64,000 nt of DNA, from assembly GCA_910587795.1 (NCBI GenBank), contig CAJUNH010000002.1, forward strand, positions 135,400 to 199,399. Direction: 5' to 3'. The DNA comes from an uncultured Christensenellaceae bacterium (lineage in GTDB: Bacteria > Bacillota > Clostridia > Christensenellales > CAG-314). The notes under the pieces were generated by a model that worked only from the letters and a program-made list of their open reading frames with translations, was not told the DNA's origin and did no database searches. Positions 1 to 43,655 of this stretch are shown piece after piece (positions within the stretch are counted from its first letter, which is position 1; the number at the start of each line of letters is the position of its first letter). The translations under genes were made by a program, and so were the position numbers.

Positions 1-204
1 ATTACAAACGAACGACATCTGTCCTGTTTAAAAACAGCAAAACGGCAATTGGCGGAAGCGGCACAGTCCTGTAAGTCGGCAACATTGGATATCGTTACCA
101 GTTCTCTTAGACAAGCATGGGAAACTTTGGGCGAAATTACAGGATCCGCCGCCAGGGAAGATATTATCGACCGTATTTACAGCAAATTTTGTTTGGGCAA
201 GTAA
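1..204 (+). CDS. mnmE: tRNA modification GTPase MnmE, C-terminal fragment (gene starts left of the window)
   Basis: Frame 1 is open from the window edge. Translation ends ...REDIIDRIYSKFCLGK*, the conserved MnmE C-terminal FC[IL]GK motif. mnmG follows immediately, as in the conserved pair. Confidence 0.85.
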   Translation: MTNERHLSCLKTAKRQLAEAAQSCKSATLDIVTSSLRQAWETLGEITGSAAREDIIDRIYSKFCLGK

Positions 205-35185: not shown

Positions 35186-35450
35186 AACAAAACCCGACAA
35201 AATAATTTATAAAACACAAGCTCGATTGCTTAGAATATTTTGTTTTACGTAAATTAAATATTTCGTAATATAATTTATCAACGCAATACGGCGTAACCAA
35301 ACCCGAATATACAATGTTGTTTAAAGCAAGTAATATTATTTAACGTAATAAAACCGCTTAAAATAATTTAAGAAAAGTTAAATATTTATTATAAAAAACA
35401 TACTAACTTAATTAATTTTTGCTGATTGCTTTTTACAGTATATAAGTCAA

Positions 35451-35490
35451 AAACGTCTCTGCCGATATTCTGCGGGGACGTTTGTATTTT
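35451..35490 (+). terminator. intrinsic terminator ~265 nt after the ABC ATPase stop
   Basis: ~12-bp stem aaacgtctctgc / gcggggacgttt (with G-U pairs) followed by gtattttt. Confidence 0.6.
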
Positions 35491-35810
35491 TACAATAATC
35501 AAATTTTATAACTGCATATCCGTAAGTAAAGTTGTTAAAAAAACGTTTGTTTAACGTAAAAGCAAAAAAAACTGTAAAAGCTTGTTACCGTATTTTATGC
35601 GTTTGCGTTTTGGCTCTGCGCGCCGATTATTGGCTATTTTTTGTATTAATTTTATACCCTTTACGTATGTAAAGGTTTTGCCATACGTCTTATGCCGTTT
35701 TAACGCAATATCCGCGCTATTTAAATAAATAATTTAGATATTTTTTAAAGTAAAAACGCGCAAAAAAAATGTAAATAAAAAATAGCCTAAAAAAAAACTG
35801 CAAAGCAGTC

Positions 35811-35838
35811 TTGACAAACGGAAAAAGTGTGGTATACT
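35811..35838 (+). promoter_or_regulatory. strong sigma-A promoter of the collagen-like/RHS operon
   Basis: TTGACA (35811-35816), 16-nt spacer, TATACT (35833-35838), with a TGg extended -10. Confidence 0.65.
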
Positions 35839-35943
35839 GTAATAGAACATAAGTTCGATAAAATTCAAAAGGAGAAGAAAATCAAGGATAAGTAAATAAA
35901 AGTAAAAACGTAATAGTAAAAAAAAGGCAATGCGGGCGGTATA

Positions 35944-35998
35944 CCGTCTGCGGTTAAAAGACGGCAAAGGTAAAGTATCCTTTGTTTCGTCTTTTTTT
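35944..35998 (+). terminator. terminator-like hairpin inside the operon leader, with an overlapping alternative hairpin (possible attenuator)
   Basis: Stem aaagacggcaaagg / cctttg(tt)tcgtcttt followed by T7. Its 5' arm (agacgg, 35959-35964) can instead pair with ccgtct (35944-35949). Confidence 0.55.
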
Positions 35999-36033
35999 AT
36001 GTAAAAAAACAATAAAAAATAAAGGAGAAAAAA

Positions 36034-36975
36034 ATGGAATTTATAAACAGAGTAAGTGCGGAAAAAGGCAGAATTAAATTAACGAAAAGCGACGGCACGG
36101 AGGAAATATGCACCGTACAGATGTGTGATGACGCAAATCCGCAGGGAACGCCGCTAAACAAGCAAACGTTCGACGATTTTAAAGAGGATATTTTAAACAC
36201 GGTATCAAAATTAAACTCTATAACGGAAACTTTGGTATACGGCAAAACAATCAGCGTAACCGATACGGTCAATTTGGAAAACACAGATGTTACTTTAACG
36301 TTAGACGGTTTTAACCGTACGCCCATTGTAGGCGAAACGTTTATCGGTATATTTTATTCCGTCGACGGTATCAGCGAAACGTCGTGCATATCCGTATGTA
36401 AAGTTATGCAAGTAACTTCGTCTGCAAACACTTGTATGGTAAAAGCGGTAAGCCGCCGAGTAGATACGTCGGGTATCGCTATAAAGTCCGTTACACACAG
36501 CGGACAGGACGTTAACGGCGGAAATGTGTACACAGTTCTTCTTTCCAACGGCGCAAAAGTATACTTTACCGCACCGCGCGGCGAAAAAGGCGAGAAAGGA
36601 GAAAAAGGTGATAAAGGCGACAAGGGCGATAAAGGCGACAGAGGATATAAAGGAGATAAAGGCGATCGCGGCGAAAAAGGCGAGTGTATTTTTATCGAAC
36701 CCAGCGGCGAGTATATTGTCAAAGGCGAAAAAGGAGATAAGGGAGACAAAGGCGACAAAGGAGAAAAGGGCGAAGGCGGCTCCGGCGTGTATCTGTCAAG
36801 CGAAGGTTTTACTGCCGGCGTAGGCAGATACGACGTAAGCAGCGTTGCATACAACAAACAGGAACTGTGCGCCGGCGACCTTATACTGTCCACGTCAACC
36901 AAAAATATGGTGCGCGTAAGGTCGTTGACAAGCGACGGGTTTATGTTTATAGGCGAATATGTTTTAACTCTGTAA
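36034..36975 (+). CDS. collagen-like triple-helix-repeat protein with a tail-fibre-like N-terminus
   Basis: Two Gly-X-Y tracts: (GEK)3(GDK)3GDRGYKGDKGDRGEKGE at 36580-36684 and GEKGDKGDKGDKGEKGEGGSG at 36724-36786. The N-terminal NRV...GTPLNKQTF resembles prophage tail-fibre N-termini. AAGGAG RBS. Confidence 0.8.
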   Translation: MEFINRVSAEKGRIKLTKSDGTEEICTVQMCDDANPQGTPLNKQTFDDFKEDILNTVSKLNSITETLVYGKTISVTDTVNLENTDVTLTLDGFNRTPIVGETFIGIFYSVDGISETSCISVCKVMQVTSSANTCMVKAVSRRVDTSGIAIKSVTHSGQDVNGGNVYTVLLSNGAKVYFTAPRGEKGEKGEKGDKGDKGDKGDRGYKGDKGDRGEKGECIFIEPSGEYIVKGEKGDKGDKGDKGEKGEGGSGVYLSSEGFTAGVGRYDVSSVAYNKQELCAGDLILSTSTKNMVRVRSLTSDGFMFIGEYVLTL

Positions 36976-37019
36976 GACAGCGGCGGCGTAACGTAATTAA
37001 TAAAAAAGGAAATAACAAT

Positions 37020-40000
37020 ATGAAAGATAACTATGAAATTATAAAAGATTGTTTGTCGGGTGCGGAGCCGTCTGCAAAAAACGGTTTTAACGCGGACAGC
37101 ACAAACGCCGCGGTAAATTTTTCGCAGGCGGAAACGGGCAGTAACCCGAGCGTAAACCTTGCGACAGGCAGGCTGCGCTACGTATTCGGCGACGTAAGCA
37201 TAGGTTACGGCAATTTTGCAATACAGGTAAACCACGTTTATACAAGCACGCGTAACAGTAATTTTAAAAATAAATTCAGCGAATTCGGCAATAACTGGAA
37301 GCTGAATTTATCGCAATGCGTTGTAAACGGCGGAGTAGACTTTTTATATATGGACGGGCAGGGCGACGTGCACCGCTTTGTAAAATTCGACGGCGACCGC
37401 TACTATGACGAATGCAACGCAAACCTTGTGCTGTCCGTAGAAAGTTCTGCTATTAATAAAATAAGGTACAACTACGTTATTACGGATAACGTAGGTAATA
37501 AAATGTATTTCGGCGAAAACGGCTTAATTATTGCAGCCCAAGACGGTCATAACGCGTCTATGATAAAATGTTTTGTATATAATGGAAATAATTTACTTAC
37601 CGAAGTATACGACGCACGAACAGAGAAAAAATGCATACGCTTTGAATACGACGGACAAAATAAATTAAAGTCCGCTTTTGCTTACAGCAACTACAGCAAA
37701 AAAGTTTCCGGTATAAAATACGAATACGACTCTAACGGTAATTTGCAGAAAGTATATAAAACGGCTTTTAACAAAGGCGCGGAGGAAGTTTTTTGCAGAG
37801 AAATGTACCGATTCGAGTACGGCTCGTACAGTAACCTAATCCAAATAGTCGACTTGCAAACAACCGAAGCTGTTGCAATAAAATATAACAACGAAAAAGC
37901 GGCGGAAAAAATCACGTCTGGCGTTTTAAAGCAGGATTGTATAGCGGTGGGTCAAAATCTGTATGCGGGCATGGCGGAGTGCGGTATGTTAGACAATCGG
38001 CAATTTATCCCTAAACACAGTCTAAGCTTTTTTTACACCAAAGGGAAAGACGGCACGGCGCAGGAAGTGCAAATTACAAACGAGGACGGAATAAAAATCG
38101 CCTACTTTTTAAATACGGCAGGTAAAATCGTCAGCTCGTTTGAAGTAACAGAAGCTAATATTTACAAAACGCTTAATAAGCAGGGCGCAAAACATTTACT
38201 AAATGCGTCGGGGCAAGCGCAAACGACAATAAACGGTTATAGTCCCCTCGCTTCAAGCGGCAGCAGCGTAAACGTTTCTGTTCCAAGCGGGTTCGATTTG
38301 GCAAATAACAAAGCAGAAAAAAAGTACAATTATTTTCAGTACTCGTTTTGGCTTAAACTTTTAAGCGACTGTCATCTGCCGCAAGCAATGGTGACATATA
38401 AATTTGAAAATAACGATCAGCAGCAGCAACAAGTTTACATAGACGGAAATGCACAAAACGTCTGGCAAAAAGTATCTCTTCCCGTAATTGTTCCAAATCT
38501 CGAAAACGATTCAAATACGGATAAAGAAAATAATCCCCAAACGGATAAACTTCAAGCCATTATAATCAGTCTGTTAAGCGAAGGCACGTTTAGTAATTGC
38601 GATTTTGAAATAATAGAAATCGGCTTTGAGCCCGCGCCTCTTACAACATCATTTTTAAGCGACAGCAAATTGTATGATGTAACGGAAGTAAGGCTGACGG
38701 TCAAAAACGGCAACGATCTTCAAACGCAAAAAAAAGTAATTAACCGAAATTTGTTTTTTACCGAAAACGATATTTTGGCAACGGCAAGCCGAAAGTTTAT
38801 GTTTCCCAACGGCGCGGACGGGTGTTTTGACGTAATATGCAATAACGGCACTAAGCGTATAGGCAGCGTAAAAACGATAGAGTTTAAAACGGACGGCGTA
38901 TTTTTCAGTCCGTATGTCCCCTATTATAGTTTTTTTACCGCGTTAAATACCGTCGTTCAACTGCAATACGGAAATAAAATAACATCTCTGTACGATTACA
39001 ATGATCAATGCGTTATTATGCAGACACAAGGCGTAAACGCCGAGGGTACAAGCAGTTTAATAGAAGTTTCCGTAGACAAGTACGGCAAAACACTGTACAA
39101 AAAGGACGAATACGGTGTAAAAACGCAGTACGGCTACAACTCTTTCGGCGCTTTAATCAGCGAAAAAGTAACCGATAAATCCTACGCGAAAAGGTCGGCA
39201 TTATATTACAGTTACGATAACGAAGGCAGGCTGTCCGCTAAACACAACGGTTTACGGGGCGAAACTTATCAGTATGACGACTACGATAAAATTTACAAAA
39301 TAACAGACTGCAAGGTTGTAAACGGCAAGCTGCAAGCAATGAAGCACAGCATACGCAAGTATTACGACATTTTTAACGATAAAACAACAAAGCAGTACGA
39401 AAACAACGGCAGCCGAGATCACGCCTGCACCGTTGCCGAATATCAAAACGGGCTTACCCGTACCGTAACGGACGGCGTGGCAAAGTACGGAGCAGTTCGC
39501 TATCCCGAACAGGACGAAGTACAGTACACAACTTTTTGGTTTGGCGAAGGCAAAGCGCAAACCGATACCGTTACCAAAAACAACGAGGGCGAAAAAACTT
39601 ACACAAGCAAATGCGGATTAAACCGAATAAGTAAAACCGTAGACGCGTACAACAGAGTAAAGCAAGTTTCAATGCAAGCCGTAAACGACGATTACGAAAG
39701 TACAGAAAATACTTTTACTTACCATTACGATAATTTAACCGAAAGTAAATTTGCAAGCAAACCTTATAAGCTTACAAACGGCATCACAGACGTTACGGAA
39801 TACTTTTACGACGGCAGCGGCAATCTTACGGGCTACATCCAAAAAGACGGCGATAAAACTTTAATGGAAGTACAGCAGCTTCCTTCGGGAGCTACAAAGT
39901 ATAAATACTCAAACCGGGACAAAATTTATGTTTCGGTAGAACACGACAGCGAAAAAACACTCAATCCGCGCGTACGTTCGATAAAATATTTGGAGGACTT

Positions 40001-41747
40001 TAACACAAACTTCGATAAACCCGAAGTTACTCCGTTGTTCCAAATAGACTATGCGGAAAATGAAATAAACGGACTGCCTACAAAAAAAACAGTGCGCCAC
40101 AAAACAAAAAAGGGTTCCGTCGAGGACTATTCCTACATAACCGTAAACGGAGTGACGCAGCTCGAAAAAAGTAATTACAGCGGAAAATGTTGGCAGGGCA
40201 AAAATGAAGGCAACGTCTGCGAAAGTAAATACGATATAACTTATCAGTACAACGACGTGGGCGAAATAACCCAGATAGTCCGCAGTGTGGATTGGAAAAT
40301 ATACGGCGGCGACAATTTGCAAGACAGTTACAAACGCAGCTATACTTATAAATACGAGTATAACGACCTGCATCAGCTTACAAAAGAACGGCTGGAATCG
40401 CACGGCGCAGACTATACCTACGATAAATACGGCAGGCTAAGCTCTGTAAACGGCAAACAGCTGCAATACGACAGCGCGTACAACCGTTTGGATATATTCG
40501 GCGATACACATTTTTTTTACGACGGCAGCGGCAACAGAACCAAGGAAATAACAACGGGACAGCAAATAAAACGTTATACTTATCTTTGCGGTTTGTTAAC
40601 CGAAACAAACAACGCCGTATACGGTTATAACCAAAACGGCGTGCGTAACAAAAAGGTTAGCGGCGGCATAACGACAAAATATATATTGGACGGCAATAAA
40701 ATCCTGTGCGAAGTACAAACCGGCGAGAAAATCAGTGATTTATATAATGATGACCAAAGGGTTGTTCAGTACTTTTACGATACAAACGGCATAGCATATA
40801 TAAAAATAAACGAAATCGTATACGAGGCAGTGCGCGACGCTTTGGGCAACGTTGTTATGCTGCTAGACTACGACAGCGGCGTTGTGGCGTGCTATTATCT
40901 TTACGACGCTTTGGGCAACTGCTACGTAAAAGACAGCAAAGGCGACAGCGACAATAATCCCAAATCCATAGGCAATACCAATCCGTTTAGATGGAAAGGT
41001 TTTTACTACGATACGGAAACGGGCTTTTACTACGCCAACGGCAGGTATTACGACCCCAAAGTAGGTCAGTACTTAAACGCGCCGCCGTTAAGCGACATAA
41101 TGCAAACCCCGTTCCGTCCCCGCATACTTGACAGGTACACTCCTATATGCAATAATTTAATAGAATTGGCGTATAACCCTGTTTCGGCATTTACCGTAAC
41201 GCAGCTGTTTGCCGACCTTAACTATGCGGACGACCAACAGCCGCTGTGGTATTTAATTTTAGGCGGCGCATTAGCCGTAGGTTCGTTTGTTCTAGCCGGA
41301 TTTACTGTTGGCTGGGGCAAAGCAATAGCAACCACGCTTATCGGCGGCGCTGTAGGAGCAGGCTTTGGTGTGTTAAGCGCACATATAACCGGCGGAGATA
41401 TTAAAACCGGCGCAATGTTTGGTATGTTATCCGGCATTATAGCAGGGAATACTGCTTCTTTCGGCGGATTGACGGTAGGCTTTATAGGCGGAGCTATTGC
41501 CGGCGGATATACGGAAATAGGCGGACAATTATTTCAATCCGGACAAGTAGTAGATTGGGATAAAGTTTACCAAAAAGCAATAGATTCAGGCTTTGTGAAC
41601 TTGATTTCAACTTATTTGGGTGCTATGACAGAAGATTTAAAAGGTTTTAAAAAGCTTTTAGCTGAATTTGTGTCGGATAGCATTACAAATGGAATATCTC
41701 TATTTATTGACTATATTAGGAGTTTAATACGTGAAACTTGGCATTAA
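37020..41747 (+). CDS. RHS/YD-repeat polymorphic toxin (~1575 aa)
   Basis: N-terminal SVNLATGRLRYVFGDVSIG. Many YD repeats (YSYDNEGRL, FYDGSGNLTG, YTYDKYGRL, YGYNQNGVR). Core end NPFRWKGFYYDTETGFYYANGRYYDPKVGQY, then a divergent 219-aa C-terminal domain. The ATG at 37020 has an AAGGA RBS; the track ORF from 36867 overlaps the upstream gene. Confidence 0.9.
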   Translation: MKDNYEIIKDCLSGAEPSAKNGFNADSTNAAVNFSQAETGSNPSVNLATGRLRYVFGDVSIGYGNFAIQVNHVYTSTRNSNFKNKFSEFGNNWKLNLSQCVVNGGVDFLYMDGQGDVHRFVKFDGDRYYDECNANLVLSVESSAINKIRYNYVITDNVGNKMYFGENGLIIAAQDGHNASMIKCFVYNGNNLLTEVYDARTEKKCIRFEYDGQNKLKSAFAYSNYSKKVSGIKYEYDSNGNLQKVYKTAFNKGAEEVFCREMYRFEYGSYSNLIQIVDLQTTEAVAIKYNNEKAAEKITSGVLKQDCIAVGQNLYAGMAECGMLDNRQFIPKHSLSFFYTKGKDGTAQEVQITNEDGIKIAYFLNTAGKIVSSFEVTEANIYKTLNKQGAKHLLNASGQAQTTINGYSPLASSGSSVNVSVPSGFDLANNKAEKKYNYFQYSFWLKLLSDCHLPQAMVTYKFENNDQQQQQVYIDGNAQNVWQKVSLPVIVPNLENDSNTDKENNPQTDKLQAIIISLLSEGTFSNCDFEIIEIGFEPAPLTTSFLSDSKLYDVTEVRLTVKNGNDLQTQKKVINRNLFFTENDILATASRKFMFPNGADGCFDVICNNGTKRIGSVKTIEFKTDGVFFSPYVPYYSFFTALNTVVQLQYGNKITSLYDYNDQCVIMQTQGVNAEGTSSLIEVSVDKYGKTLYKKDEYGVKTQYGYNSFGALISEKVTDKSYAKRSALYYSYDNEGRLSAKHNGLRGETYQYDDYDKIYKITDCKVVNGKLQAMKHSIRKYYDIFNDKTTKQYENNGSRDHACTVAEYQNGLTRTVTDGVAKYGAVRYPEQDEVQYTTFWFGEGKAQTDTVTKNNEGEKTYTSKCGLNRISKTVDAYNRVKQVSMQAVNDDYESTENTFTYHYDNLTESKFASKPYKLTNGITDVTEYFYDGSGNLTGYIQKDGDKTLMEVQQLPSGATKYKYSNRDKIYVSVEHDSEKTLNPRVRSIKYLEDFNTNFDKPEVTPLFQIDYAENEINGLPTKKTVRHKTKKGSVEDYSYITVNGVTQLEKSNYSGKCWQGKNEGNVCESKYDITYQYNDVGEITQIVRSVDWKIYGGDNLQDSYKRSYTYKYEYNDLHQLTKERLESHGADYTYDKYGRLSSVNGKQLQYDSAYNRLDIFGDTHFFYDGSGNRTKEITTGQQIKRYTYLCGLLTETNNAVYGYNQNGVRNKKVSGGITTKYILDGNKILCEVQTGEKISDLYNDDQRVVQYFYDTNGIAYIKINEIVYEAVRDALGNVVMLLDYDSGVVACYYLYDALGNCYVKDSKGDSDNNPKSIGNTNPFRWKGFYYDTETGFYYANGRYYDPKVGQYLNAPPLSDIMQTPFRPRILDRYTPICNNLIELAYNPVSAFTVTQLFADLNYADDQQPLWYLILGGALAVGSFVLAGFTVGWGKAIATTLIGGAVGAGFGVLSAHITGGDIKTGAMFGMLSGIIAGNTASFGGLTVGFIGGAIAGGYTEIGGQLFQSGQVVDWDKVYQKAIDSGFVNLISTYLGAMTEDLKGFKKLLAEFVSDSITNGISLFIDYIRSLIRETWH
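41693..41725 (+). repeat. toxin 3'-end/RBS segment that recurs before each immunity paralog (master copy)
   Basis: aatatctctatttattgactatattaggagttt. Compare with 42338-42368 and 42996-43026. Confidence 0.7.
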
Positions 41748-42249
41748 AAATAACGAGTTCATAACTTGCAATGTACCTTTTCTAGGATTAGTTTCGCTTT
41801 TTTCTATAACTTGGGCAATTAGTTTCGACCTTTCTGTACTCGCTATCGTGTTGTTATGTATTGGAGCGGGAAGCATAATTTTAACGGTTGTTACAAATAT
41901 ACCTAATATGCTAAACTATATATTGATTGACGATGAAACAATTACGCTTTATCGCCATAAAAAGCCTGTAAAACAAATAAATATAGCGGATATAAAATCT
42001 TTGGTGCTTTGTCAACATGTAGGTAGGGTACGACATAAAGCTAGTAAATACATAAATAAAATTACTTATGTCGTAATAAACGACGGAAATTTTTTAGAAA
42101 AACAATGGACGAAACGGGAACTACGCAAAAAAATATTGAGTGACAGCGAGGGGTGGATTGCAATAGAATATTCTGCTAATCGGTACGCCAAAATTAAACA
42201 ATTCCTTCCAAACTGTGAAGTTGAAACGTGTGCAATAACAAGAAAATAA
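41731..42249 (+). CDS. 2-TM membrane protein, putative cognate immunity protein (paralog 1 of 3)
   Basis: GTG start 8 nt after AGGAG, overlapping the RHS stop by 17 nt. Two N-terminal TM helices plus a ~100-aa soluble domain (ILIDDETITLYRHKKPV...WIAIEYS...LPNCE). Confidence 0.6.
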   Translation: MKLGIKNNEFITCNVPFLGLVSLFSITWAISFDLSVLAIVLLCIGAGSIILTVVTNIPNMLNYILIDDETITLYRHKKPVKQINIADIKSLVLCQHVGRVRHKASKYINKITYVVINDGNFLEKQWTKRELRKKILSDSEGWIAIEYSANRYAKIKQFLPNCEVETCAITRK

Positions 42250-42321
42250 ATTATTGTTCCATCAATCAATTTAACGATTATTCAACAACGCAGGGAAATG
42301 TATCCTTCTTACTTTAATAAT

Positions 42322-42330
42322 GGGGGGGGG
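42322..42330 (+). repeat. G9 homopolymer tract upstream of immunity paralog 2
   Basis: taatGGGGGGGGGtattgttaatatc. The flank resembles the G10 tract at 28937-28946. A TGtTAATAT extended -10-like element lies directly downstream. Confidence 0.85.
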
Positions 42331-42337
42331 TATTGTT

Positions 42338-42368
42338 AATATCTCTGCTAGTTGTATATAAGGAGTTT
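42338..42368 (+). repeat. relic of the toxin 3' end plus RBS
   Basis: aatatctctgctagttgtatataaggagttt aligns with 41693-41725. Confidence 0.65.
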
Positions 42369-42373
42369 AGCAC

Positions 42374-42898
42374 ATGAAAATCGGTTTTAATAATAACGAA
42401 GGAATAAATTTAAATGCGCTTTGTATATGCGCAATTGCACTTTACTTAATGGCAATGGCAATCGGCTTCAGATATACGGTATTCGCGATTATATTGTTAT
42501 GTTTTGCAGGGATAAGCATTATTTTTACCGTCATTAGAAACATACAAAATATACAGAATTATATTTTAATTAACAATGAAGCAATTACGTTATATCGTAG
42601 AAAAAAGCCTGTAAAACGAATAAATCTTGCAGACGTAAAGTCTATAGTACTTGTGCAATATATATTTAGTGGGCGAGGAGCATTTAATCCGGACAAATGT
42701 ATAAATACAAACACTTATATTGTATTAAACGATGGGGCTTTTTTTAAAAAAGAATGGACAAAGAGTAAATTTCGTAAAAGAGCATTAAGTGACAGCGAAG
42801 GGTGGATTGCAATAGAATTTTCTTTTAAACGCTATGCCGCCCTTACTAAGCTACTGCCAAACTGTGAAGAAGAAAAGTACACACTAACAGGTAAATAG
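42374..42898 (+). CDS. 2-TM membrane protein, immunity-like paralog 2 of 3
   Basis: By eye about half of positions are identical to paralog 1 over the full length (YILINNEAITLYRRKKPVKRINLADVKSIVL, SDSEGWIAIEFS, LLPNCE). AGGAG RBS. Confidence 0.6.
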   Translation: MKIGFNNNEGINLNALCICAIALYLMAMAIGFRYTVFAIILLCFAGISIIFTVIRNIQNIQNYILINNEAITLYRRKKPVKRINLADVKSIVLVQYIFSGRGAFNPDKCINTNTYIVLNDGAFFKKEWTKSKFRKRALSDSEGWIAIEFSFKRYAALTKLLPNCEEEKYTLTGK

Positions 42899-42995
42899 TT
42901 TTTAAGTAGTCAAAATTTTTAAAAATTGATTAACGGCGCAATGAAGTGTAACCTTCGCATTTTATAAATTACACGATTGATCGGGTAATTAGTTT

Positions 42996-43026
42996 AATAT
43001 CTTTGTTTTTGAGAATATTAGGAGTT
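42996..43026 (+). repeat. relic of the toxin 3' end plus RBS
   Basis: aatatctttgtttttgagaatattaggagtt aligns with 41693-41725. Confidence 0.6.
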
Positions 43027-43032
43027 CGATTT

Positions 43033-43581
43033 ATGAAGATGAAGATTGGCATCAATTATAACAAAACAATAAATGCTATAATGACTCCTATAGTGGGATT
43101 AATTATTATGTTTATTATAGGGTCTTTTCTTAAAGGTAAAGTTGTTCTCGCTATTGTATTGTTATCGATTGCAATGGGAATTATCATTTTTATTGCCATT
43201 AGAAATATTAAAAATGTGTTAAACTACATATTGATTGACGAAGAAGAAATCACGCTTTTTCGCCGTAACAAGCCTGTTATACGAATAAAACTAGCAGATA
43301 TAAAATCTTTAGTATTATGTCAACAAACGTTGCAGCGTAGAGGTCAATACCATCCTGATCAATTTTCCAACTCTAATTTGTTTATTTTAATCAATGACGG
43401 AACGTTTTTAAAAAAAAGTTGGACAATACGTAAATTGCGAAATAAGATGTTAGTTAACAGTGAAAAGTGGATTGCAATAGAATTTTCTTCTAACCGCTAT
43501 GCCGCTTTTAAACATTTACTTCCAAACTGTGAAATAGAAACGTGTACAATACGTGGATCAATAATTAGGATAGGAGATTAA
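43033..43581 (+). CDS. 2-TM membrane protein, immunity-like paralog 3 of 3
   Basis: MKMKIGINYNK... has the same architecture and motifs (YILIDEEEITLFRRNKPV, WIAIEFS, LLPNCEIETC). AGGAG RBS at 43019-43023. The track ORF starts 30 nt earlier. Confidence 0.6.
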   Translation: MKMKIGINYNKTINAIMTPIVGLIIMFIIGSFLKGKVVLAIVLLSIAMGIIIFIAIRNIKNVLNYILIDEEEITLFRRNKPVIRIKLADIKSLVLCQQTLQRRGQYHPDQFSNSNLFILINDGTFLKKSWTIRKLRNKMLVNSEKWIAIEFSSNRYAAFKHLLPNCEIETCTIRGSIIRIGD

Positions 43582-43611
43582 GATGTGAAGGAAATTAACA
43601 ACTAACTAACC

Positions 43612-43643
43612 GCGCAGAGGTTATATTCCTCTGCGCCGTTTTT
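43612..43643 (+). terminator. intrinsic terminator closing the RHS/immunity operon
   Basis: Perfect 9-bp GC-rich stem gcgcagagg / cctctgcgc with a 7-nt loop, followed by ttttt. Confidence 0.8.
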
Positions 43644-43655
43644 ATGTTGTTGTTT

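Follow-up and report, generated by a model that had tools for sequence, protein, structure and literature searches.

Downstream of an RHS/YD-repeat gene in the 64-kb window (the whole stretch of DNA that was analysed, from an uncultured gut bacterium of the Clostridia) lie three intact paralogous genes that are very probably the immunity genes of a polymorphic RHS toxin family. With slightly less confidence, we interpret the locus as a whole as a decayed orphan toxin-immunity array, in which a cognate immunity gene and two spares follow a toxin that would act on membranes. Toxin and immunity protein represent two undescribed protein families in a well-known arrangement, and both families are tiny, with 17 clusters in 5.8 billion proteins.

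A polymorphic RHS gene and three tandem paralogs

The RHS/YD-repeat gene (37020..41747, plus strand) encodes a putative toxin of 1575 aa that begins MKDNYEII, with a core extending to about 41099. The protein matches RHS_repeat (Pfam, 1.3e-8), the TIGR01643 YD repeat and, over residues 1310-1360, TIGR03696 Rhs_assc_core, and the end of its core was also matched by Rhs structures in a PDB profile search. Domain searches and inspection of the sequence recognised no export signal on it, nor was a delivery domain recognised. The RHS core is 94-96% identical between the window and sister strains, whereas identity between strains is only 58-77% in the variable toxin C-terminal region (CT; 41100..41747, plus strand). 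In this region a conserved linker (ILDRYTPICNNLIEL...) leads into hydrophobic helices rich in glycine zippers (~100 aa), and a variable, ~70-aa helical tail completes it.

A sequence-only reading of the window had described three tandem paralogs behind the RHS gene, the first overlapping its stop, and this arrangement holds. Paralog 1 (41731..42249, plus strand; 172 aa, GTG start), the presumed cognate of the resident toxin, overlaps the RHS stop (ORF end 41747) by 17 nt; its N-terminus, MK[LIF]GI, is conserved and homologues have an ATG at the matching position. Head to tail behind it follow two orphans with ATG starts, paralog 2 (42374..42898, plus strand; 174 aa) and paralog 3 (43033..43581, plus strand; 182 aa), giving start-to-start distances of 643 and 659 bp. 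The mechanical ORF of paralog 3 begins upstream at TTG 43003, and AGGAG is found 10 nt before ATG 43033. Pairwise protein identity is 52-53% by MAFFT and 49-53% in a larger alignment, with nucleotide identity of 72-76% across the CDS. The conserved motif blocks listed by the earlier reading are present, with small slips: paralog 1 reads INIAD rather than I.LAD and FLPNCE rather than LLPNCE, and W[IT].....R should have one dot fewer, every paralog being WT-x4-R. By tblastn the 64-kb window contains these three copies and no others. Tandem Repeats Finder did not report the array, since the longest period of that tool is 500. An 84%-identical allele of paralog 3 (P0005) occupies the same position beside uppP in L098-L100. 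A further protein, P0004, is a mosaic of immunity paralogs.

All immunity homologues whose context was inspected adjoin a homologous Gly-rich CT/RHS gene or sit inside an orphan toxin array, and members that are only 23-30% identical (L088, L089, L093) are still found directly behind glycine-zipper CTs or RHS genes. No homologue of the family was found on viral contigs. This context supports the proposal that these are immunity-type genes of one toxin family at a polymorphic RHS locus; a setting mainly outside polymorphic-toxin loci, which would have told against it, is not what the inspected homologues display.

Orphan modules and the origin of paralogs 2 and 3

Both the number and the content of the array differ between strains, in line with the variable copy number that the earlier reading had suggested looking for. 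The window array runs RHS-CT, I, relic-I, relic-I, where I is an immunity gene and the relic what remains of the toxin 3' end. The same site on the chromosome reads RHS-CT, I, relic-I, orphanCT-I in L001; RHS-CT, I, relic-I in L003; and I, orphanCT-I, orphanCT-I in L005 and L096. Matching orphanCT-I pairs are present on the partial contigs L095 and L097. The orphan CT fragments are 164-173 aa long and start in the conserved first helix of the toxin (GALAVGSFVLAG), right after the preceding immunity stop; in L001 and L005 the orphan CT overlaps its immunity gene by 17 nt, as at the RHS/paralog 1 junction. Orphan toxin domains had been described as missing here, but L001, L005 and L095-L097 carry them at equivalent positions. 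Therefore, we read the window as a set of orphan CT-immunity modules minus the CT, and consider it reasonably probable that paralogs 2 and 3 arose by loss of orphan CTs.

The sequence in front of each paralog retains the trace of this toxin end. The leader of paralog 1 (41693..41730, plus strand), with a Shine-Dalgarno AGGAG at 41717-41721, codes the last residues of the toxin (NGISLFIDYIRSLI), as had been claimed; in front of some immunity genes, sister strains hold longer relics or whole orphan CTs. Spacer 1 (42250..42373, plus strand) contains a degenerate hairpin (~42285-42310), a G9 run (42322-42330) and a relic with a Shine-Dalgarno sequence (42338-42367), and spacer 2 (42899..43032, plus strand) a degenerate hairpin (~42935-42960) and a relic with a Shine-Dalgarno sequence (42996-43026). 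The homologous stretch of ~31 nt that was first noticed before each start is real: the pattern AATATCTYT-N8-14-ATATWAGGAGTT matches the window only at 41693-41724, 42338-42367 and 42996-43026, a ~32-nt leader found exactly three times with none expected (0 in 100 shuffles). Regions upstream of the paralogs align locally better than shuffles (p<=0.003), and the two spacers are homologous over ~110 nt (p<=0.0005 vs shuffles). The stretch homologous to the toxin 3' end is ~32 nt long in the window, ~50-100 nt long in L003 and ~95 nt long in L001; the alignments score 12 SD above shuffles for the ~95-nt relic, 6.7 for the 50-100-nt relic and about 3.6 for the window relics. Mutational erosion could explain the short window relics as an alternative to a deletion end-point. 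The surviving 32-40 nt are 71-79% identical, compared with 72-76% for the CDS and a neutral expectation near 49% at dS~0.85. Judged by this conservation, the remnant would persist as the Shine-Dalgarno leader of the immunity gene and not as inert debris.

The array is closed by an intrinsic terminator (43612..43645, plus strand) in which a T run comes after a GC-rich stem of 9 bp. Its hairpin, GCGCAGAGGTTATATTCCTCTGCGC, is intact only after paralog 3 (43612-43636), where it folds at -25.2 kcal/mol (z -7.3). The further resemblance between the spacers (ttaacg...gtaWccttc) is genuine and represents a degenerate copy of this hairpin; the internal hairpins (-4.1 kcal/mol in spacer 1 and -5.7 kcal/mol in spacer 2) fold no better than shuffles. 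In L001 and L003 the sequence of the terminal hairpin is also present between immunity genes.

A plain tandem duplication would account for several of these features. Under this alternative, unequal crossing-over copied a ~650-bp unit that spanned the ~40 nt at the end of the toxin gene, the immunity gene and the terminator, giving paralogs 2 and 3, which never had orphan toxin domains. Homology between the two spacers runs their full length and they share a junction, indicating that a toxin-less unit was duplicated at least once; divergence in the leader is about that of the CDS; each unit has a copy of the terminator hairpin; and the tandem immunity paralogs of esaG and tipC were made by recombination (PMC9484751). 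However, full orphan CTs lie at equivalent positions in sister strains with the 17-nt overlap kept, relic length varies from ~32 to ~95 nt between lineages where a single fixed unit boundary predicts otherwise, and the paralogs, at 49-53% identity, differ from each other as much as from immunity proteins that accompany distinct CTs in other strains. We thus regard plain duplication as unlikely. The duplication of a 650-bp unit posited earlier stands in part, in that paralogs 2 and 3 share one junction and were duplicated toxin-less, but CT loss from orphan modules fits better.

We therefore propose the following history for CT loss. Paralog 1 would be the cognate immunity gene, translationally coupled to the toxin through the 17-nt overlap, and paralogs 2 and 3 orphan immunity genes derived from CT/immunity modules of the type that sister strains still have complete. 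Deletion would have removed the toxin parts of these modules except for the last ~32-40 nt, which may have survived because the ribosome-binding leader of the immunity gene sits there. The toxin-less unit would then have been duplicated once, after CT loss. The internal terminator hairpins have decayed. Given that decay, all three paralogs are probably co-transcribed with rhs, ending at the single intact terminator.

Predicted proteins, selection and proposed mode of action

Residues 61-160 of the toxin CT are 27% Gly and 13% Ala, and the glycine-rich segment carries tandem GxxxG motifs and eight overlapping [GAS]xxx[GAS]x3 runs. The CT matched no family in Pfam, NCBIfam or PADLOC, no enzymatic domain was recognised by family searches or composition, and an AF2 model (pLDDT 35) was unusable. 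[quoted passage not shown]

The immunity proteins matched no Pfam family. The AF2 model of paralog 1 (pLDDT 75.6) places helices at 9-31 and 35-60 ahead of a beta-rich domain, and predicts a two-helix membrane hairpin with a cytoplasmic domain. This soluble domain of ~110 aa has a predicted order of five strands, helix, strand, helix, strand. The best Foldseek matches of the model are all of the PH superfold, at E-values of 0.026 or worse, and the cytoplasmic domain is probably PH-like. A PH-like layout of the bPH/YdbS type had been suggested: YdbS and YdbT do share the N-terminal two-helix membrane hairpin and small beta-rich domain, but the canonical bPH fold of seven strands and a C-terminal helix differs in element order, and membership is not supported by sequence, as 0/15 family members match a bPH model (Pfam, E<=1). 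Residues K2, I57, Y63, I64, T72, K78, S90, V92 and Q95 (paralog 1 numbering) are invariant across the 17-member family.

Constraint is uneven along the immunity protein. Identity is 32% in the hairpin vs 62% in the soluble domain, and dN/dS between the window paralogs is 0.37-0.46 overall, 0.54-1.02 in the membrane hairpin and 0.29-0.38 in the soluble domain (0.29-0.32 for paralog 2 against the others), purifying selection being strongest on the cytoplasmic domain. Toxin distances follow immunity distances only weakly across six cognate pairs (r 0.30 over the full length and -0.04 over the membrane hairpin), which weighs against our reading of the locus. In our working model the fast-evolving hairpin would anchor the immunity protein and set its specificity, and the three paralogs together would protect against the resident toxin and variant toxins from other strains. 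Conservation of the cytoplasmic part would be as compatible with capture of a cytoplasmic domain as with neutralisation in the membrane.

The Gly-rich segment could, moreover, serve for entry instead of being the toxin itself, because related RHS proteins put such a segment before enzymatic toxins. A similar linker (LDRNG.xCNN..EL) and Gly-rich membrane segment precede a TNT domain in L089 and a soluble toxin domain without a family in L026, with small soluble immunity genes behind them in both. The real toxin would then be the ~70-aa tail acting in the cytoplasm, captured as it emerges by the membrane-held cytoplasmic domain of the immunity protein, which would suit the strong purifying selection on that domain. 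Against this, the tail is short, without a match to any family, and predicted to form amphipathic helices; variability in the immunity protein falls in the membrane hairpin and not in the soluble domain, a better fit to an intramembrane specificity contact; and known immunity proteins against cytoplasm-acting toxins are usually soluble, whereas Tsi5, TsaI, ExiCD and the CdiI proteins of ionophores are membrane proteins paired with membrane-acting toxins (PMC9637101, PMC12744356, PMC11630599). We consider an entry module doubtful and retain membrane depolarisation as the preferred mechanism.

That paralogs 2 and 3 are decaying leftovers without current function, intact for want of time, would agree with the dN/dS of 0.89 between paralog 3 and its closest allele P0005 (from only about 46 substitutions, and compatible with what may be relaxed constraint) and with the finding of no cognate toxin of either type among the loci examined, but is improbable given that both ORFs are intact and keep the family-invariant residues and the W-I-x-I and LPNC motifs of the wider immunity family, that soluble-domain dN/dS is low at a dS of 0.8-1.2, that the Shine-Dalgarno leaders are conserved to CDS level, and that the relic-I2-relic-I3 arrangement recurs in independent samples, with identical copies of the paralog 2 protein (P0001) on 61 contigs. 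Paralog 2 has a dN/dS of 0.50 against the L100 allele.

Comparison with known toxin-immunity systems

Functionally, the system comes nearest to Tse5/Tsi5 and to the immunity strings of TspA/TsaI and esaG. Tse5 (RhsP1) of Pseudomonas aeruginosa is an Rhs pore-former whose immunity protein Tsi5 has two transmembrane helices (PMC9637101, PMC10684867). As in the window, an RHS cage protein ends in a hydrophobic helical CT without an enzymatic domain, and the immunity gene, with two predicted transmembrane helices, lies immediately downstream. The two CTs, however, show no sequence similarity in a PDB profile search, where Tse5 (8cp6) was matched solely via the Rhs-core end. Tse5 has a PAAR-like N-terminus and T6SS delivery in a Gram-negative host, whereas the window derives from Clostridia and its RHS protein has no recognised delivery domain. 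Moreover, the window immunity protein has an extra conserved ~110-aa soluble domain relative to Tsi5, and three such genes stand in a row.

Membrane immunity proteins, also found as orphans, neutralise glycine-zipper toxins that depolarise membranes (PMC12744356). The TspA/TsaI and esaG strings resemble the window in belonging to Firmicutes, in this pairing of toxin and membrane immunity protein, in having non-identical tandem immunity paralogs downstream of the toxin gene and orphan immunity genes without one, and in paralog recombination that alters copy number and makes mosaics (here P0004). The toxins differ, being LXG proteins delivered via the T7SS rather than RHS proteins, and TsaI and ExiCD are polytopic and of other families, while the window immunity proteins lack a Pfam match. 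To our knowledge, no relics of a toxin 3' end preceding the individual paralogs have been described for TspA/TsaI or esaG strings.

CDI ionophore CdiA-CT toxins have polymorphic membrane CdiI immunity proteins (PMC11630599). Here too, one membrane-spanning toxin family has diversified into many cognate pairs with highly divergent integral-membrane immunity proteins. CDI toxins are delivered by another route, the CdiB/CdiA two-partner secretion of Gram-negative bacteria. The ionophore fold is predicted to be a five-helix bundle, different from the window toxin, and no sequence relationship between the two was detected. In Enterobacteria, orphan rhs/cdiA-CT toxin-immunity modules form displaced arrays downstream of the main gene (PMC3150448, PMC3967940). 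These modules share with our locus a pattern of strain-to-strain variation and retained main-gene homology that permits recombination. Unlike them, the orphan CTs here begin in the first helix of the toxin, outside the conserved Rhs core; a single toxin/immunity family accounts for every module; and the CT parts in the window have shrunk to ~32-nt leaders.

The RHS toxin gene and its probable immunity paralogs

Three tandem ORFs follow the RHS gene (37020-41747, + strand, 1575 aa): copy 1 (41731-42249, +; GTG start, 172 aa), which overlaps the RHS gene by 17 nt, copy 2 (42374-42898, +; 174 aa) and copy 3 (43033-43581, +; 182 aa). Pairwise identities are 49-53% for the proteins and 72-76% for the DNA; the paralogy and coordinates claimed from the sequence alone are confirmed, and these three are the only family members within the window. 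Tandem Repeats Finder did not report the array in the window, owing to a repeat period of >500. All three copies are intact, retaining the residues invariant in the 17-member family alignment as well as two motifs seen in the wider family, W-I-x-I and LPNC. Among the window paralogs dN/dS is 0.37-0.46 overall, with 0.54-1.02 for the membrane hairpin and 0.29-0.38 for the soluble domain; against the nearest alleles of another sample copy 2 gives 0.50 and copy 3 gives 0.89, values that derive from few substitutions. Moreover, the copy 2 protein is seen on 61 contigs, and the order relic-copy 2-relic-copy 3 adjoining uppP recurs in independent samples. Taken together, these data suggest functional genes with a fast-evolving hairpin; copy 3 may be under relaxed constraint. 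A promoter-like GTGACA/TTAACA-18-TAGAAT element occurs inside SDSEGWIAIE, the coding block of highest conservation, in each paralog (42140-42169, 42789-42818 and 43454-43483, +), and might provide each downstream unit with its own promoter or be a by-product of coding conservation.

The immunity family is small, with 17 clusters in 5.8 billion proteins and 11 representatives in 1.84 billion, and one NCBI member is annotated simply as 'hypothetical protein'. No significant family was found for the paralogs in Pfam, NCBIfam or PADLOC, nor in PHROGs for copy 1, the sole paralog scanned there, and the immunity profile matched nothing in the PDB by sequence at E<=10. The sole family hint was STM3941 (NCBIfam NF041635), rejected as falling below its curated 40-bit cut-off; copy 2 scored best (25.2 bits, E=1.3e-5, residues 18-95), with copies 1 and 3 at 14-15 bits. 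The AF2 model (pLDDT 75.6) places two predicted transmembrane helices at residues 9-31 and 35-60 (block-mean pLDDT 63 to 85) and, after them, a beta-rich domain that includes two further helices. The charge pattern points to an N-in, C-in topology, with lysines at the N-terminus, a turn between the membrane helices that is uncharged or acidic, and a C-terminal domain rich in K/R. Most of the top-scoring Foldseek matches in the PDB have the PH superfold (myosin-1c tail, talin F3, SPT16/Pob3), none of them significant (best E 0.026; TM-scores ~0.3 normalised to the full-length query). The sequence-only reading had likened the layout to bPH/YdbS-type proteins; sequence lends no support to bPH membership, as no Pfam bPH profile matched any of the three paralogs, or any of 15 family members at E<=1.

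Eleven family members share 32% identity over the hairpin and 62% over the soluble domain. One member, P0004 (from a Logan contig of 1162 nt), is a mosaic, almost identical to copy 1 over residues 1-~93 and thereafter of the type of the first immunity protein in sister strain L001, which we take as evidence that paralogs or alleles have recombined. Identity at synonymous sites is highest in two blocks, DETITLYRHKKPVKQ and LPNCEVETC, and these could serve as recombination blocks.

The RHS protein itself matches Pfam RHS_repeat (1.3e-8), TIGR03696 (36.3 bits, cut-off 32.5), TIGR01643 (27.4 bits, cut-off 15.8) and the PDB Rhs proteins 8h8a and 8qja. As regards the canonical cleavage motif PxxxxDPxGL, which divides core from toxin, the sequence reads ...GRYYDPKVGQYLNAPPLSD, with DPxxG in place and the exact DPxGL absent, and the Rhs_assc_core match stops at residue 1360. 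Searches of Pfam and NCBIfam found no delivery determinants (PAAR/VgrG, LXG, or Sec signal with wall anchor) in the RHS protein, and no signal peptide was found, there being no hydrophobic segment within the first 80 residues (37020-37260 region); an export route of some unrecognised kind may nonetheless exist. The variable C-terminal toxin region (CT, 41100-41747) consists of a conserved linker (ILDRYTPICNNLIEL...FADLNY...), a glycine-rich segment of ~100 aa (27% Gly, eight overlapping [GAS]xxx[GAS] runs) and a variable helical tail of ~70 aa. Its family is tiny (13 clusters found), with no significant match in Pfam, NCBIfam or PADLOC and no enzymatic domain found in these family searches. 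Against the PDB the CT profile matches only the ends of Rhs cores; the AF2 model is all-helical but has a pLDDT of 35.

At 36034-36975 (+), ending 45 nt upstream of the RHS start, lies the gene of a 313-aa protein that has a collagen-like repeat (GEKGDKGDK) and is 99% conserved along with the RHS gene in three sister strains (L001-L003). A phage origin was rejected for it, as its PHROG 'tail fibre' and NCBIfam Scl/Lcl matches are confined to the collagen repeat. One possibility is that this protein partners the RHS toxin or displays it at the surface.

Leaders, relics and probable decay of the array

The pattern AATATCTYT-N8-14-ATATWAGGAGTT matches the window at 41693-41724, 42338-42367 and 42996-43026 only, with none expected by chance. 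The common element noticed before each copy is therefore real, and that of copy 1 sits within the RHS ORF, where it encodes the toxin's last residues, ...NGISLFIDYIRSL. Homology between spacer 1 (42250-42373) and spacer 2 (42899-43032) extends across ~110 nt (p<=0.0005). Within it, the 'ttaacg...ccttc' block common to both spacers is a GC-rich hairpin in degenerate form. Only behind copy 3 is this hairpin intact (43612-43636; -25.2 kcal/mol, z -7.3), and a T run follows it there; the internal copies, at -4.1 and -5.7 kcal/mol, are no more stable than shuffled sequences. A 10-nt stretch of spacer 2, CGGCGCAATG, recurs in the CT coding sequence, but it lies within the degenerate hairpin and was rejected as a chance match (E=0.48). 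Spacer 1 also carries a G9 homopolymer (42322-42330) ~45 nt upstream of the copy 2 start, identical in locus L100, which could be slippage-prone.

Conservation of the leader is 71-79%, on par with coding sequence, despite a synonymous divergence between paralogs of 0.8-1.2, and AGGAG stands 9-10 nt ahead of every start codon. On this basis, the surviving piece appears to be the translation-initiation region of the immunity gene, derived from the toxin. The description of these elements as relics thus holds with respect to their origin in the toxin 3′ end, but they are not mere remnants, being conserved as what looks to be a functional leader.

Related loci were all recovered by exact-protein look-ups; pattern scans with the immunity profile of one-genome-per-species, JGI metagenome and viral contigs found no relative. 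In sister strains the RHS core is 94-96% identical and the CT 58-77% identical to those of the window (L001, L003 and L005). The window array reads RHS-CT, immunity gene, then two relic-immunity units. In L001 and L002 the last of these units is instead an orphan CT with its immunity gene, L003 and L004 end after a single relic-immunity unit, and L005 and L096 show an immunity gene followed by two orphan CT-immunity pairs, the same pairs being found on the partial contigs L095 and L097. It had been proposed that orphan toxin domains are lacking here. This is true of the window, which has relics only, but not of the system, since six loci (L001, L002, L005 and L095-L097) carry orphan modules at the same site. 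With this, the apparently functional leader and the want of sequence support for bPH as its three corrections, the sequence-only interpretation is largely right.

The orphan CTs are 164-173 aa long and start ...GALAVGSFVLAG, which is the toxin region's first hydrophobic helix, a few bases past the preceding immunity stop. An identical 17-nt overlap connects each main or orphan CT with its immunity gene. In tblastn the second orphan CT of L005 seemed to reach back into the immunity gene before it, but this proved an alignment artefact, with homology beginning at ...ALSVGSFVLAG, past the stop codon. Relic lengths are graded, from ~95 nt in the L001 spacer (alignment score 43 vs 14.1±2.4) through ~50-100 nt in that of L003 (30 vs 13.8±2.4) to ~32 nt in the window (19-22 vs ~12-13.5±2). 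This gradation, together with intact orphans at equivalent positions, matches a progressive loss of the toxin parts of orphan CT-immunity modules, and the window array is what such loss would leave. Moreover, the toxin-less unit would also have been duplicated once, because spacers 1 and 2 share one junction.

Two sister loci have their RHS gene broken into two ORFs (L003 3622-8327, 1169+384/419 aa; L094 2197-6942, 1223+313 aa), and tblastn homology to the window RHS runs across the join; the cause is either a frameshift, which would make it a pseudogene, or an error of assembly.

Distant relatives, proposed mechanism and significance

Even immunity homologues of only 23-30% identity immediately follow homologous glycine-zipper CTs or RHS genes (P0019 in L088, P0024 in L093, and P0023 with a 175-aa P0025-like homologue in L089). 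Therefore, the toxin-immunity linkage holds across the whole family, in agreement with the immunity-type context first proposed. The best-supported reading is that the RHS protein would deliver the glycine-zipper CT, which would insert into the target's cytoplasmic membrane and depolarise it, whilst the two-helix proteins would neutralise it inside the membrane, with specificity residing in the variable hairpin. Copy 1 would shield the cell from its own toxin and copies 2 and 3 would guard against variant toxins of other strains; decay of the internal hairpins would allow all three to be transcribed along with rhs, up to the terminator at 43612-43645. There are precedents. Tse5/Tsi5 pairs an Rhs pore-former with a two-helix immunity protein (PMC9637101), the EsxX/ExiCD and TspA/TsaI systems pair depolarising glycine-zipper toxins with membrane immunity proteins that are also found as orphans (PMC12744356), and CDI ionophores make up numerous polymorphic cognate pairs with their membrane CdiI proteins (PMC11630599). 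Like Tse5/Tsi5, the window combines a hydrophobic, glycine-zipper CT, predicted to be helical and without an enzymatic domain, with an immunity protein of two predicted transmembrane helices. However, the CT profile matches Tse5 (8cp6_B) at core residues 1058-1096 only (E=0.0079), and the toxin part has no match.

In the main rival reading the zipper segment would serve for entry and toxicity would reside in the CT tail, which the cytoplasmic domain of the immunity protein would intercept; the glycine zipper of Tde1 offers a comparison (PMC10240207). Bearing on it is a mixed RHS orphan array from a more distant species (L089 1-7100), which comprises a glycine-zipper CT with homologous immunity gene, an orphan of an unassigned toxin, an orphan with a TNT domain and a glycine-zipper orphan that is truncated and again has a homologous immunity gene. 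These orphans start at or shortly after a common linker, LDRN.LMCNNVLEL, and each has a glycine-rich membrane segment; the TNT and other toxin orphans are each followed by a small soluble immunity gene, and L026 is similar. A glycine-rich membrane segment can, on this evidence, act as carrier of enzymatic cargo. The soluble domain is the better conserved part of the immunity protein. Distances between CT and immunity protein covary weakly across six cognate pairs (r=0.30), too weakly to assign the specificity region.

An extension of the depolarising-toxin reading would make this a gut-Clostridia toxin/immunity system not described before and assembled from modules. Here, a glycine-zipper membrane module of the sort with which related RHS proteins bring enzymatic toxins such as TNT through the membrane would have turned into a stand-alone depolarising toxin. 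The immunity proteins would form a new class, with the rapidly evolving two-helix hairpin as specificity element and a conserved, membrane-tethered PH-like domain in the cytoplasm, with invariant LPNC, as the common block. New specificities would arise by hairpin/domain shuffling between tandem paralogs, as in the mosaic P0004. As a joint proposition we consider this rather doubtful.

If the toxin-immunity inference is correct, one uncharacterised toxin and one uncharacterised immunity family, neither in Pfam, are added to the polymorphic toxin repertoire. To our knowledge, interbacterial antagonism is essentially unstudied in the host's lineage of uncultured, Christensenellales-like gut Clostridia. 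The sister loci also provide a clean natural decay series, from full orphan CT through relics of ~95 nt and ~50-100 nt to a ~32-nt leader, for the way in which Rhs arrays drop toxins yet retain immunity genes. Such shedding of toxins with retention of immunity underlies 'cheater' protection in dense communities. Moreover, a toxin segment of ~160 aa and an immunity protein of ~175 aa make a small pair for studying two-helix neutralisation of a glycine-zipper toxin. No general concept is changed, as Rhs orphan arrays, membrane immunity to pore-formers and strings of immunity paralogs are all established; what is new is two undescribed families in an unstudied lineage, in an arrangement of a well-known kind.

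Genomic site of the RHS island

The RHS island lies in the interval 35186-43655, flanked by the gene of an MsmX-like ABC ATPase and by uppP (bacA). Two related species have these flanking genes side by side, 323 and 439 bp apart, and across the loci compared (L008, L045, L009, L010 and L026) the interval is a variable hotspot, holding a DNA methylase and an ABC transporter in L009, a surface protein in L010, and in L026 another RHS gene, a tyrosine recombinase (integrase) and small immunity genes. Because the site is empty in two species and filled with other cargo elsewhere, the RHS island is accessory DNA at a variable site. YchF, whose gene lies just downstream, reaches no more than 90% identity with that of any species representative, its nearest relatives being animal and human gut MAGs labelled uncultured Christensenellaceae, Clostridia, Oscillospiraceae and Candidatus Fimimonas. 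Four GenBank MAGs (L014, L028, L042 and L093) are titled 'Corallococcus sp. NALB_*' and encode a YchF 83-89% identical to that of the window; one MAG of this title has an RHS gene and an immunity homologue. This myxobacterial name is probably a mislabel. Lastly, sister strain L001 has a gene for a PhdYeFM-type antitoxin (194-418) some kilobases before its RHS island, at a place that corresponds to the window upstream of ~32269.
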